NCBI RefSeq assembly: GCF_024223415.1
Contig: NZ_CP100500.1
From: Escherichia coli
Lineage (GTDB): Bacteria; Pseudomonadota; Gammaproteobacteria; Enterobacterales; Enterobacteriaceae
Direction: 5' to 3' (one strand)
Length of the DNA stretch: 64,000 bases
Below are positions 33,168 to 64,000 of the stretch, piece by piece (position 1 is the stretch's first letter; each line of letters begins with the position of its first letter). The position numbers were made by a program, and so were the translations under genes. The notes below the pieces were generated by a model that searched no databases, was not told the origin of the DNA, and saw only the letters and a list, made by a program, of their open reading frames with translations.

Positions 33168-34136
33168 TTGTTAAATTCATTTAAACTTTCGCTACAGTAC
33201 ATTCTGCCGAAACTATGGCTTACTCGCCTGGCGGGTTGGGGCGCAAGCAAGCGGGCAGGATGGCTGACAAAACTGGTTATCGATCTGTTCGTTAAATACT
33301 ACAAGGTCGACATGAAAGAGGCGCAAAAGCCGGACACCGCCAGCTACCGCACCTTTAACGAATTCTTTGTCCGTCCGCTGCGTGACGAAGTACGCCCAAT
33401 CGATACCGATCCGAATGTCCTGGTTATGCCTGCCGATGGCGTTATCAGCCAGTTGGGTAAAATCGAAGAAGATAAAATCCTGCAAGCCAAAGGCCACAAC
33501 TACAGCCTCGAAGCCCTGCTGGCAGGCAACTATCTGATGGCGGACCTGTTCCGCAACGGTACGTTTGTGACCACTTACCTCTCCCCGCGTGACTACCACC
33601 GCGTACACATGCCGTGCAACGGTATTCTGCGTGAGATGATCTACGTGCCGGGCGATCTCTTCTCCGTTAACCATCTCACGGCTCAGAACGTGCCGAATCT
33701 GTTTGCCCGTAACGAACGCGTGATCTGCCTGTTCGATACCGAATTTGGCCCAATGGCGCAGATTCTGGTCGGTGCGACGATTGTAGGCAGCATTGAGACT
33801 GTCTGGGCGGGCACCATTACGCCGCCGCGCGAAGGCATCATCAAGCGCTGGACCTGGCCTGCCGGGGAAAACGACGGTTCTGTGGCACTGCTGAAAGGCC
33901 AGGAAATGGGTCGTTTTAAACTCGGTTCCACCGTTATCAACCTGTTTGCACCGGGTAAAGTGAATCTGGTTGAGCAACTGGAAAGCCTGTCTGTCACGAA
34001 AATTGGCCAGCCGCTGGCAGTATCTACCGAAACCTTTGTTACGCCAGACGCTGAACCAGCTCCACTTCCTGCTGAAGAGATCGAAGCAGAACACGACGCC
34101 AGCCCATTGGTTGACGATAAAAAAGACCAGGTCTAA
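33168..34136 (+). CDS. psd: phosphatidylserine decarboxylase proenzyme Psd
   Basis: ORF 322 aa, TTG start, [27 protein letters not shown]...; LGST self-cleavage motif (KLGSTV) present. Confidence 0.93.
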
Positions 34137-34157
34137 TCCATCAAAGGAAACGCTGAC

Positions 34158-37100
34158 GTGCGCCTGATTATCACTTTTCTGATGGCCTGGTGCCTCAGTT
34201 GGGGGGCGTACGCCGCGACGGCCCCCGATAGCAAACAAATCTCACAAGAACTGGAGCAGGCAAAAGCGGCGAAACCCGCACAGCCGGAAGTCGTAGAGGC
34301 GCTCCAGTCTGCCTTAAATGCGCTTGAGGAACGAAAAGGTTCCCTTGAGCGCATCAAGCAATATCAAGAAGTCATTGATAATTATCCGAAACTCTCCGCT
34401 ACTCTGCGCGCACAATTAAACAACATGCGTGACGAGCCGCGCAGCGTGTCGCCGGGGATGTCTACCGACGCGCTGAATCAGGAAATTCTCCAGGTCAGCA
34501 GTCAGTTGCTGGATAAAAGCCGTCAGGCCCAGCAAGAGCAGGAGCGCGCCCGCGAGATTGCCGATTCGCTGAATCAACTGCCGCAACAGCAAACCGACGC
34601 CCGCCGTCAGTTAAACGAGATCGAGCGCCGCCTGGGAACGCTTACCGGCAATACTCCGCTCAATCAGGCACAAAATTTCGCGTTGCAGTCTGACTCCGCA
34701 CGTCTTAAGGCGCTCGTTGATGAACTGGAGCTGGCGCAGCTGTCTGCCAATAACCGCCAGGAATTAGCGCGCTTGCGCTCAGAGCTGGCGGAAAAAGAGA
34801 GCCAGCAACTGGATGCGTATTTGCAGGCCTTGCGTAATCAATTGAACAGCCAACGCCAGCTTGAGGCAGAGCGGGCGCTGGAAAGTACCGAATTACTAGC
34901 AGAAAACAGTGCCGATTTGCCGAAAGATATCGTCGCGCAATTCAAAATTAACCGCGAACTATCGGCGGCTTTGAATCAACAGGCGCAGCGGATGGATCTC
35001 GTTGCCTCGCAACAGCGTCAGGCTGCCAGCCAGACGTTACAGGTCCGGCAGGCGTTGAATACGCTGCGTGAACAGTCGCAATGGCTGGGATCGTCCAATC
35101 TGCTCGGCGAAGCGTTGCGGGCGCAGGTGGCACGGCTGCCGGAAATGCCGAAACCACAACAGCTTGATACCGAAATGGCGCAGTTGCGTGTGCAACGGTT
35201 ACGTTATGAGGATCTGCTTAATAAACAGCCGCTGCTACGGCAAATTCATCAGGCCGACGGTCAGCCGCTGACTGCCGAGCAAAACCGTATTCTGGAAGCA
35301 CAGCTACGCACTCAGCGTGAGTTGCTGAACTCATTGTTGCAGGGTGGCGACACGCTACTGCTGGAACTGACCAAGCTGAAAGTCTCCAACGGGCAACTGG
35401 AAGATGCGCTGAAAGAAGTGAACGAAGCGACGCACCGCTATCTGTTCTGGACCTCTGACGTGCGCCCGATGACCATCGCCTGGCCGCTGGAAATCGCCCA
35501 GGATCTGCGTCGTCTCATTTCGCTGGACACCTTCAGTCAGTTGGGCAAAGCCAGTGTGATGATGCTGACCAGCAAAGAGACGATTTTGCCGCTGTTTGGC
35601 GCGTTGATTCTGGTCGGTTGCAGTATTTACTCGCGCCGCTATTTTACCCGTTTTCTTGAACGTTCGGCGGCGAAAGTCGGTAAAGTGACTCAGGATCACT
35701 TCTGGCTGACGTTACGCACTCTTTTCTGGTCGATTCTCGTCGCGTCACCGCTGCCGGTGCTGTGGATGACGCTGGGTTACGGCTTGCGCGAGGCGTGGCC
35801 TTATCCGCTGGCGGTCGCGATTGGCGATGGTGTAACGGCCACCGTGCCGCTGCTGTGGGTAGTGATGATTTGCGCCACCTTTGCCCGCCCGAACGGCTTG
35901 TTTATCGCTCATTTTGGCTGGCCGCGCGAACGTGTTTCTCGTGGGATGCGCTACTACCTGATGAGCATCGGGCTTATTGTGCCACTGATTATGGCGCTGA
36001 TGATGTTCGATAACCTCGACGACCGCGAATTTTCCGGTTCGCTGGGACGGCTTTGCTTTATCCTCATTTGCGGTGCGCTGGCGGTGGTCACCCTCAGCCT
36101 GAAAAAGGCCGGGATCCCGCTGTATCTCAACAAAGAGGGCAGCGGCGACAACATTACCAACCATATGCTGTGGAACATGATGATTGGCGCGCCACTGGTT
36201 GCCATTCTGGCGTCGGCGGTGGGTTATCTGGCAACGGCGCAGGCACTGTTAGCGAGGCTTGAAACCTCGGTTGCCATCTGGTTCCTGCTACTGGTGGTTT
36301 ATCACGTTATCCGCCGCTGGATGCTGATCCAACGACGCAGGCTGGCGTTTGACCGGGCGAAGCATCGCCGGGCAGAGATGTTAGCGCAACGTGCGCGTGG
36401 CGAAGAGGAAGCACATCATCACAGTAGCCCGGAAGGGGCAATTGAAGTCGATGAAAGCGAAGTCGATCTCGATGCCATCAGTGCGCAGTCCTTGCGGCTG
36501 GTGCGCTCAATTTTGATGTTGATCGCCCTGCTTTCGGTCATTGTGCTGTGGTCAGAAATCCATTCCGCTTTCGGCTTCCTCGAAAATATTTCGCTGTGGG
36601 ATGTCACCTCCACGGTACAGGGCGTAGAAAGTCTGGAGCCGATTACCCTCGGTGCGGTGCTGATTGCCATTCTGGTGTTTATCATCACCACGCAGCTGGT
36701 GCGCAATCTGCCCGCGCTGCTGGAACTGGCGATTTTGCAGCACCTGGATTTAACGCCGGGTACCGGCTACGCCATCACCACCATCACCAAATATCTGCTG
36801 ATGCTGATTGGCGGGCTGGTCGGCTTCTCGATGATTGGTATTGAGTGGTCGAAATTGCAGTGGCTGGTCGCCGCGCTCGGTGTTGGTCTCGGTTTTGGTT
36901 TGCAGGAAATTTTCGCCAACTTTATCTCTGGCCTGATCATCCTGTTCGAAAAACCGATTCGCATTGGCGATACGGTAACGATCCGCGATCTTACTGGTAG
37001 CGTGACAAAAATTAACACCCGCGCCACCACCATCAGCGACTGGGACCGTAAAGAGATAATCGTGCCGAACAAGGCGTTTATTACCGAGCAGTTTATCAAC

Positions 37101-57566: not shown

Positions 57567-57905
57567 ATGCTTGATGAAAAAAGTTCGAATACCGCGTCTG
57601 TCGTGGTGCTATGTACCGCACCGGATGAAGCGACAGCCCAGGATTTAGCCGCCAAAGTGCTGGCGGAAAAACTGGCGGCCTGCGCGACCTTGATCCCCGG
57701 CGCTACCTCTCTCTATTACTGGGAAGGTAAGCTGGAGCAAGAATACGAAGTGCAGATGATTTTAAAAACTACCGTATCTCACCAGCAGGCACTGCTGGAA
57801 TGCCTGAAGTCTCATCATCCATATCAAACCCCGGAACTTCTGGTTTTACCTGTTACACACGGAGACACAGATTACCTCTCATGGCTCAACGCATCTTTAC
57901 GCTGA
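57567..57905 (+). CDS. cutA: divalent-cation tolerance protein CutA
   Basis: ORF 57561..57905 trimmed to [32 protein letters not shown], 112 aa. Confidence 0.92.
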
Positions 57906-59578
57906 TCCTGCTACTTTGCAGCACTTCCGTTTTTGCCGGATTATTCGACGCGCCGGGACGTTCACAATTTGTCCCCGCGGATCAAGCCTTTGCTTTTGAT
58001 TTTCAGCAAAACCAACATGACCTTAATCTGACCTGGCAGATCAAAGACGGTTACTACCTCTACCGTAAACAGATCCGCATTACGCCGGAACACGCGAAAA
58101 TTGCCGACGTGCAGCTGCCGCAAGGCGTCTGGCATGAAGATGAGTTTTACGGCAAAAGTGAGATTTACCGCGATCGGCTGACGCTTCCCGTAACCATCAA
58201 CCAGGCGAGTGCGGGAGCGACGTTAACTGTCACCTACCAGGGCTGTGCTGATGCCGGTTTCTGTTATCCGCCAGAAACCAAAACCGTTCCGTTAAGCGAA
58301 GTGGTCGCCAACAACGCAGCGTCACAGCCTGTGTCTGTTCCGCAGCAAGAGCAGCACACCGCGCAATTGCCCTTTTCCGCGCTCTGGGCGTTGTTGATCG
58401 GTATTGGTATCGCCTTTACGCCATGCGTGCTGCCAATGTACCCACTGATTTCTGGCATCGTGCTGGGTGGTAAACAGCGGCTCTCCACTGCCAGAGCATT
58501 GTTGCTGACCTTTATTTATGTGCAGGGGATGGCTCTGACTTACACGGCGCTGGGTCTGGTAGTTGCCGCCGCAGGGTTACAGTTCCAGGCGGCGCTACAG
58601 CACCCATACGTGCTCATTGGCCTCGCCATCGTCTTTACCTTGCTGGCGATGTCAATGTTTGGCTTGTTTACTCTACAACTCCCCTCCTCGCTGCAAACGC
58701 GCCTCACGCTGATGAGCAATCGCCAACAGGGCGGCTCACCCGGCGGAGTGTTTATTATGGGGGCGATTGCCGGACTGATCTGTTCACCATGCACCACCGC
58801 ACCGCTTAGCGCGATTCTGCTGTATATCGCCCAAAGCGGGAACATGTGGCTGGGCGGCGGCACGCTTTATCTCTATGCGTTGGGCATGGGCCTGCCGCTG
58901 ATGCTAATTACCGTCTTTGGTAACCGCTTGCTGCCGAAAAGCGGCCCGTGGATGGAACAAGTCAAAACCGCGTTTGGTTTTGTGATCCTCGCACTGCCGG
59001 TCTTCCTGCTGGAGCGAGTGATTGGTGATATATGGGGATTACGCTTGTGGTCGGCGCTTGGTGTCGCATTCTTTGGCTGGGCCTTTATCACCAGCCTACA
59101 GGCCAAACGCGGCTGGATGCGCGTGGTGCAAATAATCCTGCTTGCAGCGGCATTGGTTAGCGTGCGCCCACTTCAGGATTGGGCATTTGGTGCGACGCAT
59201 ACCGCGCAAACTCAGACGCATCTCAACTTTACACAAATCAAAACGGTAGATGAGTTAAATCAGGCGCTCGTTGAAGCCAAAGGCAAACCGGTGATGTTAG
59301 ATCTTTATGCCGACTGGTGCGTCGCCTGTAAAGAGTTTGAGAAATACACCTTCAGCGACCCGCAGGTGCAAAAAGCGTTAGCTGACACGGTCTTACTTCA
59401 GGCCAACGTCACGGCCAACGACGCACAAGATGTGGCGCTGTTAAAGCATCTTAATGTCCTTGGCCTACCGACAATTCTCTTTTTTGACGGACAAGGCCAG
59501 GAGCATCCACAAGCACGCGTCACGGGCTTTATGGATGCTGAAACCTTCAGCGCACATTTGCGCGATCGCCAACCGTGA
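57881..59578 (+). CDS. dsbD: thiol:disulfide interchange protein DsbD
   Basis: ORF 57800..59578 trimmed to [23 protein letters not shown], 565 aa; N-terminal domain, TM core with Cys pair, C-terminal thioredoxin-like CVAC; overlaps cutA 3' end. Confidence 0.93.
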
Positions 59579-59614
59579 ACGACACTTGCAGTGGGAAAGA
59601 CGGAGGAAAATAGC

Positions 59615-60190
59615 GTGCAACGTGAAGATGTACTGGGAGAAGCCCTGAAATTATTAGAATTACAAGGGATTGCCTACACCACGCTGGAGATGGTTGCTGA
59701 ACGTGTGGATTATCCACTGGACGAGCTGCGCCGCTTCTGGCCAGACAAAGAGGCAATCCTCTACGATGCGCTGCGTTATCTTAGCCAACAGATAGATGTC
59801 TGGCGTCGTCAGCTGATGCTGGACGAAACGCAAACCGCCGAACAAAAGCTGCTGGCACGTTATCAGGCGTTATCGGAGTGCGTTAAAAACAACCGCTATC
59901 CGGGCTGTCTATTTATCGCTGCCTGTACGTTTTATCCCGATCCTGGCCACCCTATTCATCAACTGGCCGATCAGCAAAAAAGCGCGGCCTACGATTTCAC
60001 CCACGAACTGTTAACCACGTTGGAAGTTGACGATCCGGCGATGGTAGCAAAGCAGATGGAACTGGTGCTGGAAGGCTGTTTAAGCCGAATGCTGGTAAAT
60101 CGTAGCCAGGCGGATGTCGACACTGCACATCGGCTGGCGGAAGATATCCTGCGCTTCGCCCGCTGCCGCCAGGGTGGCGCATTGACCTGA
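59615..60190 (+). CDS. yjdC: TetR-family transcriptional regulator YjdC
   Basis: ORF 59591..60190 trimmed to GTG start ([31 protein letters not shown]), 191 aa. Confidence 0.88.
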
Positions 60191-60296: not shown

Positions 60297-60372
60297 GCCC
60301 GGATAGCTCAGTCGGTAGAGCAGGGGATTGAAAATCCCCGTGTCCTTGGTTCGATTCCGAGTCCGGGCACCA
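60297..60372 (+). tRNA. pheU: tRNA-Phe (anticodon GAA)
   Basis: GCCCGGATAGCTCAGTCGGTAGAGCAGGGGATTGAAAATCCCCGTGTCCTTGGTTCGATTCCGAGTCCGGGCACCA; cloverleaf, GAA anticodon, encoded CCA. Confidence 0.95.
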
Positions 60373-60569: not shown

Positions 60570-61832
60570 ATGGCACTGACTGACGCAAAAATCCGGGCTG
60601 CAAAGCACACTGACAAGGCTTATAAACTCACTGACGGGGCTGGCATGTTCCTGCTGGTACATCCTAATGGTTCCCGTTACTGGCGTCTCCGTTATCGCAT
60701 TCTGGGTAAGGAGAAAACTCTGGCACTTGGTGTATACCCGGAGGTTTCTCTCTCCGAAGCTCGTACAAAACGGGATGAGGCCCGAAAACTGATTTCGGAG
60801 GGGATTGACCCTTGCGAACAGAAAAGAGCTAAAAAAGTAGTCCCTGATTTACAACTCTCTTTTGAACATATTGCACGACGCTGGCATGCCAGTAATAAAC
60901 AATGGGCACAATCACACAGCGATAAGGTACTCAAAAGCCTCGAAACACACGTTTTCCCCTTTATCGGCAACCGGAACATCACAACACTCAATACCCCGGA
61001 CCTGCTTATCCCTGTTCGTGCTGCAGAAGCTAAACAAATTTATGAAATCGCCAGTCGTCTGCAGCAAAGAATATCTGCTGTAATGCGTTATGCCGTACAG
61101 TCTGGCATCATCAGATATAATCCTGCTCTGGATATGGCTGGCGCATTGACTACGGTAAAACGCCAGCATCGCCCCGCTCTTGATCTTTCTCGCCTGCCTG
61201 AACTTTTGTCGCGTATTGGCAGTTACAAGGGGCAACCTGTCACCCAGCTTGCCGTTATGCTGAATTTACTGGTTTTTATTCGTTCCAGTGAACTCAGATA
61301 CGCCCGCTGGTCTGAAATTGATATTGACAATGCCATGTGGACTATTCCAGCCGAACGCGAACCCCTGCCAGGCGTAAAATTCTCACACCGGGGCTCCAAG
61401 ATGCGAACACCACATCTTGTGCCACTCAGCAAACAGGCTGTAGCCATACTGACAGAACTACAGACATGGGCTGGTGAAAATGGTCTGATCTTTACGGGAG
61501 CACATGACCCGCGTAAACCAATCAGTGAAAATACTGTAAATAAAGCCCTGAGGGTGATGGGGTATGACACAACCCAGGATGTCTGTGGCCATGGATTCCG
61601 GGCGATGGCGTGCAGTGCATTGATTGAATCAGGTTTGTGGTCCCGCGATGCTGTGGAACGTCAGATGAGCCATCAGGAGCGTAATGGTGTACGTGCTGCG
61701 TATATCCATAAAGCAGAACATCTGGAAGAACGTCGACTGATGCTACAGTGGTGGGCAGATTTTCTGGATGCGAACAGAGATAAGGGTATCAGCCCGTTTG
61801 AATATGCAAAGATTAACAATCCATTAAAATAG
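60570..61832 (+). CDS. P4-type tyrosine recombinase (genomic-island integrase)
   Basis: ORF 420 aa MALTDAKIRAAKHTDKAYKLTDGAGMFLLVHPNGSRYWRLRYR..., Arm-binding N-terminus typical of P4-like Int; catalytic HGFR and downstream Tyr (RAAYIH) present; ~200 bp from tRNA-Phe 3' end. Confidence 0.9.
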   Translation: MALTDAKIRAAKHTDKAYKLTDGAGMFLLVHPNGSRYWRLRYRILGKEKTLALGVYPEVSLSEARTKRDEARKLISEGIDPCEQKRAKKVVPDLQLSFEHIARRWHASNKQWAQSHSDKVLKSLETHVFPFIGNRNITTLNTPDLLIPVRAAEAKQIYEIASRLQQRISAVMRYAVQSGIIRYNPALDMAGALTTVKRQHRPALDLSRLPELLSRIGSYKGQPVTQLAVMLNLLVFIRSSELRYARWSEIDIDNAMWTIPAEREPLPGVKFSHRGSKMRTPHLVPLSKQAVAILTELQTWAGENGLIFTGAHDPRKPISENTVNKALRVMGYDTTQDVCGHGFRAMACSALIESGLWSRDAVERQMSHQERNGVRAAYIHKAEHLEERRLMLQWWADFLDANRDKGISPFEYAKINNPLK

Positions 61833-61835
61833 TAA

Positions 61836-61880
61836 GCAGTCCGGGCTGATTGCCCGGACTGCTTTAACTGATTATTTTTC
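61836..61880 (+). terminator. putative intrinsic terminator after integrase gene
   Basis: gcagtccgggc-tgat-tgcccggactgc hairpin followed by a T-rich tract. Confidence 0.45.
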
Positions 61881-62097
61881 TTTGTAAATGATGACGAAGA
61901 TTGATGTTCTGGCAAGTTACTCCGGCTTCCATTAAAGTCCCTTCGTCATGTTCTTCAGGCTATTTATGACTGTGATTAGCACCAGGAATATCTGGTTTCC
62001 ATGAGAGCAGGTAATAACCCCCGGTGTTTTCGGCTGTTCTGGTATCCTTGTCCAACACAGGCAGTCATTATAAACGGTAAAAAATGTGGATTTGCCC

Positions 62098-63003
62098 CTA
62101 TATTTCCAGACATCTGTTATCACTTAACCCATTACAGGCCCGCTGCCGCAGATATTCCCGTGGCGAGCGATAACCCAACGCACTATGCGGATGCCATTCG
62201 TTATAATGCTCGAACGCCTCTGCAAGGTTCTTTGCTGCCGTTAACCCGTCTGGTTTGGGCATGACACTGATGTAGTCACGCTTTATCGTTTTCACGAAGC
62301 TCTCTGCTATGCCGTTACTCTCCGGACTCCGCACCGCCGTGTTCTTCGGTTCAAGCCCCAACATCCGGGCAAACTGCCGTGTTTCATTAGCCCGGTAGCA
62401 TGAACCATTATCCGTCAGCCACTCTACTGGAGACGCCGGAAGCTCGTTGCCGAAGCGGCGTTCCACCGCTCCTGGCATGACGTCCTGTACTGTTTCACTG
62501 TTGAAGCCGCCCGTAGTGACCGCCCAGTGCAGTGCCTCACGGTCACAGCAGTCCAGCGCGAACGTGACTCGCAGTTTTTCTCCGTTATCACAGCGGAACT
62601 CGAACCCGTCAGAGCACCATCGCTGATTACTTTCTTTCACAGCCACTCTGCCGGTATGTGCCCGTTTCGATGGCGGTACAGCGGTTTTTCGCTCAAGCAA
62701 CAGCGCATTCTGGCGCATGATCCGGTAAATACGTTTGGCATTGATCGCAGGCATACCATCAAGTTCTGTTTGTCTGCGAAGCAGCGCCCATACCCGACAA
62801 TAACCATATGTGGGTAGCTCTCCGATAACATGGTGTATACGGCGAAGCACATCCGTATCATCCGTGTGACGGCTGCGGCGGCCGTCCTTCCAGTCATCGG
62901 CTCGTCTGAGAATGACGTGCAACTGCGCACGCGACACCCGGAGACAACGGCTGACGAAGCTTACTCCCCATCCCCGGGCAATAAGGGCGCGTGCGCTATC
63001 CAC
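62098..63003 (-). CDS. insD: IS2 transposase OrfB (DDE integrase domain)
   Basis: ORF 301 aa [34 protein letters not shown]..., recognised as IS2 InsD. Confidence 0.92.
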
Positions 63004-63326
63004 TTTTTTGCTCGCCCATATTCAACGGCTTCTTTAAGGAGTTCATTTTCCATCGTTTTTTTGCCGAGCAGACGCTGGAGTTCTTTAATCTGCTTCATGG
63101 CGGCAGCAAGTTCAGAGGCAGGAACGACCTGTTCTCCGGCAGCCACAGCAGTAAGACTTCCCTCCTGGTATTGCTTACGCCAGAGAAATAGCTGGCTGGC
63201 TGCCACACCATGTTGCCGGGCAACAAGGGAGACCGTCATTCCCGGTTCAAAGCTCTGCTGAACGATAGCGATCTTTTCCTGTGTAGTACGCCGTCTGCGT
63301 TTCTCCGGCCCTAAGACATCAATCAT
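62961..63326 (-). CDS. insC: IS2 transposase OrfA (HTH)
   Basis: ORF 62961..63371(-) trimmed to [41 protein letters not shown], 121 aa; overlaps insD in the -1 frame. Confidence 0.9.
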
Positions 63327-63543
63327 CTGTTCTCCAATGACTAGTCTAAAAACTAGTATTAAGACTATCACTTATTTAAGTGATATTGGTTGTCTGGAGA
63401 TTCAGGGGGCCAGTCTAAAATGTATTCACTGTTATGAAATCAATAGTTCTGACGTACTGTTGAATGTGCTTGCGTTCTGAACCTTGTACAACCAGTACAT
63501 TTGATACCGAATTATAAACAAAACATTGCATCCAACTTTTTCA

Positions 63544-63566
63544 ATATGGACAATAGTTGTCCATAT
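63544..63566. promoter_or_regulatory. perfect 10-3-10 palindrome (ATATGGACAA-TAG-TTGTCCATAT), candidate operator upstream of the cargo ORF
   Basis: read directly from sequence ~55 bp upstream of the ATG at 63620, inside an AT-rich leader. Confidence 0.4.
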
Positions 63567-63619
63567 GGTGGTTTTATATTCGATAAATCAATGGATTTCA
63601 TTGAGTCATAGGACTGGTA

Positions 63620-64000
63620 ATGGATGAAAATGCTTTAGGGTTTGCCTCATACTGGCGCAACTCGCTTGCGGATGCTGAGTCAGGAAAGGGCAGTTTTGAA
63701 CGGAAAGACGCCAAAAATTTCACTCATTGGCATGGGATAGCGGCGGGACGTCTTGACGAAGCGATTGTCAGTAAATTTTTTAAGGGAGAAAAAGACGATG
63801 TCGAAACGGTCGATGTCATCTTGCGCCCAAAAGTTTATTTCCGGTTACTGCAGCATGGTAAGGACCGTTCTGCAGGTGCGCCTGATATTGTTACCCCGAT
63901 AGTGACGCCAGCCTTGCTAAGCCGTGAGGGTTTTTTATATCCGACGCCAGCGACCTCCATTCCCAGAGACCTGCTTGAACCTTTGCCAAAAGGAGCATTT
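63620..64000 (+). CDS. island cargo gene of unknown function (first 127 codons only; continues beyond window)
   Basis: open frame from ATG 63620 to the window end with no stop: MDENALGFASYWRNSLADAESGKGSFERKDAKNFTHWHGIAAGRLDEAIVSKFFKGEKDDVETVDVILRPKVYFRLLQHG...; not in ORF track because it is unterminated; I do not recognise the family. Confidence 0.5.
   Translation, partial: MDENALGFASYWRNSLADAESGKGSFERKDAKNFTHWHGIAAGRLDEAIVSKFFKGEKDDVETVDVILRPKVYFRLLQHGKDRSAGAPDIVTPIVTPALLSREGFLYPTPATSIPRDLLEPLPKGAF

Follow-up and report, generated by a model that had tools for sequence, protein, structure and literature searches.

The window, that is, the whole stretch of 64,000 nucleotides of Escherichia coli DNA analysed here, ends inside an open reading frame carried by a genomic island at a tRNA gene. 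Upstream of the island, the chromosome order is dsbD (57800-59578) and a gene for a TetR-type regulator (59591-60190). The integration site is a tRNA-Phe (GAA) gene on the plus strand (60297-60372), which was found with ARAGORN and identified as pheU by its dsbD-yjdC neighbours. It is followed by the gene for a tyrosine-type integrase of 420 amino acids (60570-61832, plus strand), whose match to the NCBIfam integrase-domain model NF007246 has an E-value of 3.4e-73. Directly after the stop codon of the integrase gene lies a G+C-rich palindrome (61834-61864) with 13 pairs, nine of them G-C. It probably serves as the terminator of the integrase gene, and the next gene would then be shielded from read-through. 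The spacer between the integrase gene and the frame at the window end contains a 1,331-bp IS2 on the minus strand (62088-63418), with transposase frames of 136 and 301 amino acids. This copy is 96% identical to the IS2K of K-12, and the 5-bp sequence AAATG on either side of it (62083-62087 and 63419-63423) is its target duplication. Another pheU island (locus L007) has no IS2, and its sequence is contiguous across the insertion site. IS2 is a secondary insertion and is no part of the defence gene discussed below.

From the ATG at 63620-63622, 127 stop-free codons run on the plus strand to base 64000, the last base of the window. These 381 nucleotides (63620-64000) are the 5′ part of a gene, codons 1-127 of 1,171, which is cut by the window end before any stop codon, and they carry no disabling change. 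A preliminary description of this region had reported a clean frame of at least 127 codons from the same ATG, and the same frame, start, and translation were recovered here. Its statement that the frame comes first among the cargo genes of the island agrees with the gene order, in which the frame is the first gene after the tRNA-Phe and integrase genes, and the distance to IS2, given as 200 bp, was measured as 201 bp. An in-frame TGA lies upstream at 63602-63604, and a putative ribosome-binding site, AGGA, can be read on the plus strand at 63610-63613, 6 nt ahead of the ATG. The ATG at 63620 is therefore the earliest possible start, and the NCBI annotation pipeline places the start at the same ATG in related genomes. 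The AGGA, which reads GGGA in one allele, is a probable ribosome-binding site of the gene. Taken alone, the 127 visible residues match the PADLOC profile of MkoC with an E-value of 3.7e-40 over profile positions 1-131. Between full-length mkoC alleles, pN/pS is 0.12-0.14 over the whole gene, which fits a working protein. Because of this profile match and this ratio, the frame is judged from its sequence to be a real gene and not a chance ORF.

Full-length gene and its assignment to Mokosh type II

The segment from 63400 to 64000 was matched in 891 of 5,426 complete E. coli genomes (approximately 16%), and the match was chromosomal every time. The E. coli genomes that are identical over this segment carry an intact gene of 3,516 bp, encoding a protein of 1,171 amino acids with a computed mass of 131.5 kDa. 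Thus, the full-length ORF, which the preliminary description had proposed to obtain, was available from these genomes. The IS2 junction is common to only three of the 891 genomes, and there the product is annotated as an "AAA domain-containing protein". AR_0085 is identical to the window over 63400-64000 and approximately 99% identical across the preceding 15.6 kb. The identity and the architecture of the full-length protein are read from full-length relatives such as AR_0085, and statements about the gene beyond base 64000 are extrapolated from them. It is likely that mkoC is intact past base 64000 in the source genome, too.

Compared with the PADLOC MkoC profile (PDLC03924), the full protein gave an E-value of 0 and 1,693 bits, residues 1-1169 being aligned with positions 1-1135 of the 1136 profile positions. 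The preliminary description had left the frame as unrecognised and fitting no family, and had named a confident match of the full protein to a characterised family as the finding that would speak against this view. Such a match has now been found from end to end, and the protein moreover shares approximately 96% identity with a Mokosh type II protein that has been validated by experiment. In supplementary file 11 of Millman et al. (bioRxiv 10.1101/2022.05.11.491447), the system SG150 is entered as "Mokosh type II" with the status "v" (verified). Its source is E. coli 5-366-08_S1_C1, and its MkoC (IMG gene 2586378093) is given with 1,171 amino acids and the N-terminus MDENALGFASYW (10.1101/2022.05.11.491447). 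The protein here has the same length and the same start. The two differ at 15 of the 399 residues that are printed (96.2% identity), and three of the differences (K55E, I67V, and I94L) fall within the visible 127 amino acids. The proximal leader is common to both alleles, and so is the three-part layout, in which the N-terminal domain is followed by the SF1 helicase and then by the PLD. In contrast, their settings differ: an HNH gene precedes the SG150-type allele, which resides in a P4-like element or a comparable hotspot, while the present gene is preceded by an integrase gene at pheU and has IS2 upstream. I consider it very likely that the ORF at the window end represents the 5′ portion of mkoC, which as a single gene constitutes Mokosh type II and which resides here on the pheU island. 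Defence against phage by this allele is predicted from the verified SG150 allele, with which it shares 96% identity.

According to Millman et al. (10.1101/2022.05.11.491447), Mokosh is composed of a COG1112 RNA-helicase and a PLD-nuclease, which are fused in type II. In that study, the defence systems were assayed from native promoters, and mutations of the ATP site and the PLD site abolished Mokosh defence, although the mutated systems are not named where this is stated (10.1101/2022.05.11.491447). A later report (10.1101/2025.07.10.664194) gives Mokosh type II, according to mass photometry, as a monomer of 132 kDa and states that, within the panel of phages used there, it defends only against the ssDNA phage SECphi17. 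In the sources used in this study, no phage other than SECphi17 is reported as restricted by this system. Wu et al. found Mokosh II 975 times in E. coli, in co-localisation with type IV restriction, and Cury et al. proposed that the helicase and PLD modules of Mokosh are homologous to MOV10L1 and PLD6 of the piRNA pathway. Since a validated construct, published reports, and 975 counted instances exist, Mokosh type II is a known, catalogued, and common system, and the mkoC gene described here is not new in kind. A search of the literature collection used here and of the PDB found no mechanistic or structural study dedicated to Mokosh type II. As for the annotation of the gene, MkoC homologues are held in databases under the names "DNA helicase", "ATP-binding protein", and "AAA domain-containing protein". 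These names are uninformative because NCBIfam has no model for the MkoC family; just sub-threshold matches to helicase-nuclease defence, RecD, and IGHMBP2 models were obtained.

Membership in Mokosh type I was also considered. The helicase and PLD modules of type I (MkoA and MkoB) are homologous to those of the present MkoC; the PADLOC MkoA profile matched residues 692-974 (E = 2e-36), and the MkoB profile matched residues 1011-1138 (E = 9e-17). However, type I is encoded by two genes, and its helicase protein bears a serine/threonine kinase domain, whereas there is one fused gene here, and the N-terminal domain of type I is also different. Type I membership was rejected on the grounds that the gene is single, that Pfam detects no kinase, and that the MkoA and MkoB profiles match only the common helicase and PLD cores. 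No separate mkoB gene adjoins mkoC, and there were no PADLOC matches among the neighbours.

Architecture of MkoC and its N-terminal domain

MkoC consists, in this order, of an N-terminal domain of approximately 270 amino acids, an SF1 helicase resembling UPF1 and Senataxin, and a PLD nuclease of the Nuc/Zucchini type. The Pfam search on the full protein assigned AAA_11 to residues 272-492 and 679-729, AAA_12 to residues 777-969, and PLDc_2 to residues 1028-1138, together with the PLDc motif at residues 1110-1133, and it assigned no domain ahead of residue 270. The sequence motifs, as seen in the relatives, all lie past the window end. They are the Walker A motif GPPGTGKT at residue 295, DEAG at residue 697, and one HKD motif, HSKIVIGD, at residue 1114. 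The visible part of the frame had been described as lacking a nucleotide-binding motif, in agreement with the position of Walker A approximately 500 bp past the window end. GPPGTGKT and DEAG are invariant across 41 MkoC homologues, as are H1114, K1116, and D1121 of the HxK(x)4D motif in the same alignment.

The AlphaFold model of full-length MkoC, made with 41 homologues, has a mean pLDDT of 88.9 and a pTM of 0.80. The best Foldseek matches of this model in the PDB were Senataxin, UPF1, IGHMBP2, Aquarius, Sen1, DNA2, and coronavirus nsp13, with 12-19% identity, and the E-values for Senataxin, UPF1, and IGHMBP2 ranged from 1e-16 to 1e-13. A profile search of PDB sequences returned the same helicases and, in addition, matched residues 1043-1133 to the Nuc endonuclease (1byr). 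The PDB searches yielded no solved Mokosh protein structure. In the model, a long helical insertion (residues 394-656, approximately) lies between the Walker A part and the Walker B part of the first RecA domain. The fold of the helicase core is shared, at a sequence identity of only 12-14%, with the eukaryotic SF1B helicases UPF1, Senataxin/Sen1, IGHMBP2, and MOV10L1, whereas the N-terminal domain and the long helical insertion distinguish MkoC from the eukaryotic UPF1-like helicases. The nuclease domain is a single-HKD PLD of the Nuc type, as in Zucchini/PLD6 of the piRNA pathway. In the animal counterparts, the helicase and the nuclease are on separate proteins, while they are fused in MkoC.

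The 127 codons of the window make up the first half of the N-terminal domain. A search with residues 1-279 of MkoC gave 273 cluster representatives with E <= 0.001 among 1.84 billion. Among the 150 of these 273 matches that were listed, 49 are at least 1,000 amino acids in length. In nearly all of these long proteins, Walker A falls close to residue 285, and in 36 of them an HKD motif falls close to residue 1100; the other listed matches are shorter proteins and fragments. When the N-terminal domain was modelled alone, the pLDDT was 88.5 and the pTM was 0.79. Foldseek against AFDB50 returned only helicase or helicase-PLD proteins of the MkoC family, or their fragments. It was found that the N-terminal domain occurs only ahead of the helicase-PLD architecture of this family. 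The structure search found no relative of the domain among solved structures, and Pfam has no model for it. The AlphaFold and Foldseek analysis proposed in the preliminary description was thus fruitful for the helicase, for which relatives were found, but not for the N-terminal domain. The domain could not be placed from the window alone because it is family-specific and has neither a Pfam model nor a solved relative. The invariant positions of the domain are Y11, D18, G24, F54, G104, R116, L119, P121, W174, Y224, R261, L271, and Q275.

Leader and genomic contexts of mkoC

The leader between IS2 and the ATG is 201 bp in length with a G+C content of 33%. The preliminary description had noted an AT-rich leader with a perfect palindrome, and both features were confirmed. 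The palindrome, ATATGGACAA-TAG-TTGTCCATAT (63544-63566), consists of two arms of 10 nt, which are 100% complementary, and a spacer of 3 nt. A perfect 10-nt inverted repeat appeared in 60 of 20,000 shuffles of the 201-bp leader. The palindrome is perfect only in the window-type alleles (loci L001-L004); in those of BH100 and Res13, one or two pairs are mismatched. The alleles of SG150, the P4-like element, and Enterobacter have ACGTGGACAA-TAG-TTATCCATAC instead, in which 6 of 10 pairs are formed and the changes are non-compensatory. Perfect symmetry is not needed, because the validated SG150 allele functions with 6 of 10 pairs, and an operator requiring perfect symmetry was ruled out for the same reason. 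The palindrome does exist as described, but the weight implied for it is not borne out by the validated allele. Its core, TGGACAA-TAG-TT(G/A)TCCA, is conserved and is a possible binding site.

The proximal part of the leader (63517-63619, plus strand) accompanies mkoC in every genomic context. The alleles in a P4-like element align with the leader only from 63517 onward, and the segment from 63567 to 63619 is nearly invariant across five loci, Enterobacter included. The native mkoC promoter is probably contained in 63517-63619; it is inferred rather than located, because a consensus scan of the leader gave no sigma-70-like site. IS2, which ends at 63418, lies outside this block of approximately 100 bp, and could alter mkoC expression from its position 201 bp upstream. 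The leader RNA (63520-63640) has a folding energy of -33.3 kcal/mol and folds better than its shuffles (z = -4.06). It forms two hairpins, and in the second one the AGGA of the ribosome-binding site is base-paired to a stretch rich in U. No covariation was found in the second hairpin; its three natural variants are two broken pairs and one wobble, none of which is compensatory. Rfam contained no leader RNA family matching this region and gave only a sub-threshold match to NsiR1, which lies at 63871-63938 and is at the chance level (18 bits against a gathering score of 39, E = 0.6). Inside the coding sequence, there is also a terminator-like hairpin at 63912-63929, likewise at the chance level.

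A module of the integrase gene, mkoC, a phosphoethanolamine transferase gene, and an outer-membrane protein gene was found at pheU (the window, L001, and L007), at pheV (L002 and L003), and at leuX (L006). A more divergent allele of the SG150 type follows an HNH gene in a P4-like element of E. coli (L008), and the same kind of allele is present in an integrative element of Enterobacter hormaechei (L005). In summary, mkoC is an accessory, mobile gene. The IS2 junction itself is found at different chromosomal sites, pheU in AR_0085 and pheV in E41. The island has probably moved or recombined between the tRNA-Phe loci after the IS2 insertion. The two genes downstream of mkoC are encoded on the opposite strand (L001:23845-25344 and L003:12845-15266). 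One encodes a CptA/EptA-like phosphoethanolamine transferase of 499 amino acids, and the other encodes an outer-membrane protein of 246 amino acids resembling the adhesin Adr, both assignments resting on NCBIfam matches well under the curated cut-offs. Neither is a known defence gene. Enzymes of this transferase class modify LPS; sensitivity to polymyxin and phage receptors can both be affected by them.

In AR_0085, the transferase gene is followed by ISVsa5 (IS10-like) and then by a truncated LacI-family regulator gene by idnT (L001:25558-27216 and 33705-34913). Next come idnTOD-idnK-ahr-leuX, and a second ISVsa5 in the inverse orientation splits the leuX integrase gene. The pheU island and the idn-leuX locus, which are joined in AR_0085, are presumably more than 100 kb apart on the K-12 map. 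This arrangement looks like an IS-mediated inversion or deletion.

K-12 MG1655 (NC_000913.3, 4495500-4506000; locus L009) has the same leuX island as L006, with intB and then yjgX, a phosphoethanolamine transferase pseudogene. Approximately 4 kb with the leader and the entire mkoC gene is missing there, and its place is taken by IS2K. Since this segment is absent at leuX and IS2K is found instead, K-12 apparently lost the mkoC defence gene by an IS2-associated deletion. At another locus, the K-12 pseudogene yjhR (b4308, L010:8016-9032) is 67% identical, over its whole 338 amino acids, to residues 834-1171 of MkoC. It comprises only the end of the helicase and the PLD, without the N-terminal domain and Walker A. 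Judged by this similarity, yjhR is the C-terminal remnant of a second, paralogous MkoC.

Alternative readings and a working model

Is the mkoC copy of the window still a working defence gene? It might be a decaying remnant that has been truncated, frameshifted, or silenced by IS2 and no longer defends. Such decay is on record for this gene, as the mkoC of strain H3, which stands in the same arrangement with an integrase gene, lacks its C-terminus, and K-12, having lost mkoC at leuX with IS2K in its stead, keeps only the 338-residue paralogue remnant yjhR. Many database entries for MkoC homologues are partial, and the islands of mkoC are rich in IS elements. However, the 3,516-bp ORF is intact in all three complete genomes that have the IS2 junction and are identical over 63400-64000. 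IS2 moreover spares the leader of approximately 100 bp that is kept with mkoC in every context, and the visible 381 nt are free of disabling changes. I consider it unlikely that the present copy is such a remnant.

Far less probable still, and hardly credible, is the idea that mkoC encodes a repair or replication helicase-nuclease of the DNA2 or RecD kind, which would serve the upkeep of the host or the island and not defence. The source names "DNA helicase" and "ATP-binding protein" would suit such a role, and models of the DNA2 and RecD types do match weakly and partially. These matches are confined to the conserved helicase core and fall far under the cut-offs (for RecD2, 26.5 bits against 500). 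Just approximately 16% of E. coli genomes have the gene, and it resides exclusively on mobile elements; the SG150 allele, with 96% identity, is listed as verified for phage defence. These points argue against such a role.

How might the Mokosh type II protein act on a phage? UPF1, Sen1, and IGHMBP2 translocate in the 5′ to 3′ direction on single-stranded RNA or DNA. The ATP-driven helicase of MkoC probably loads on phage nucleic acid that is single-stranded, whether ssDNA or RNA replication intermediates, and such a substrate fits the reported specificity for SECphi17, an ssDNA phage. The PLD nuclease would thereby be carried to the phage nucleic acid and cut it. Nuc (1BYR) and Zucchini form homodimers whose joint active site is assembled from two HKD motifs, one per chain. 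In the likeliest working model, the nuclease of a lone MkoC molecule would be incomplete and hence off in uninfected cells, and it would probably become active when two MkoC molecules meet on the same single-stranded substrate. Two molecules would be needed for cleavage because an active site of the Nuc type takes two HKD motifs, MkoC has one, and the purified protein is reported to be monomeric. The N-terminal domain is the likeliest candidate for a sensor or a regulatory (autoinhibition) module of MkoC. The more specific proposal that it is a new fold and a phage-sensing or autoinhibitory module, which gates the dimerisation of the single-HKD nuclease, is possible but doubtful, and is put forward here only tentatively. 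The confident model of the domain, its restriction to this helicase-PLD architecture, and its invariant residues are compatible with that proposal.

For the annotation of this region, the unknown cargo ORF should be replaced by mkoC of Mokosh type II. The pheU island then reads as a small defence island, on which mkoC lies beside one gene for a CptA-like phosphoethanolamine transferase and another for an outer-membrane protein that resembles an adhesin. The remaining value of the finding lies at the level of the family, namely in the mechanism and the substrate of Mokosh II and in the role of its N-terminal domain.
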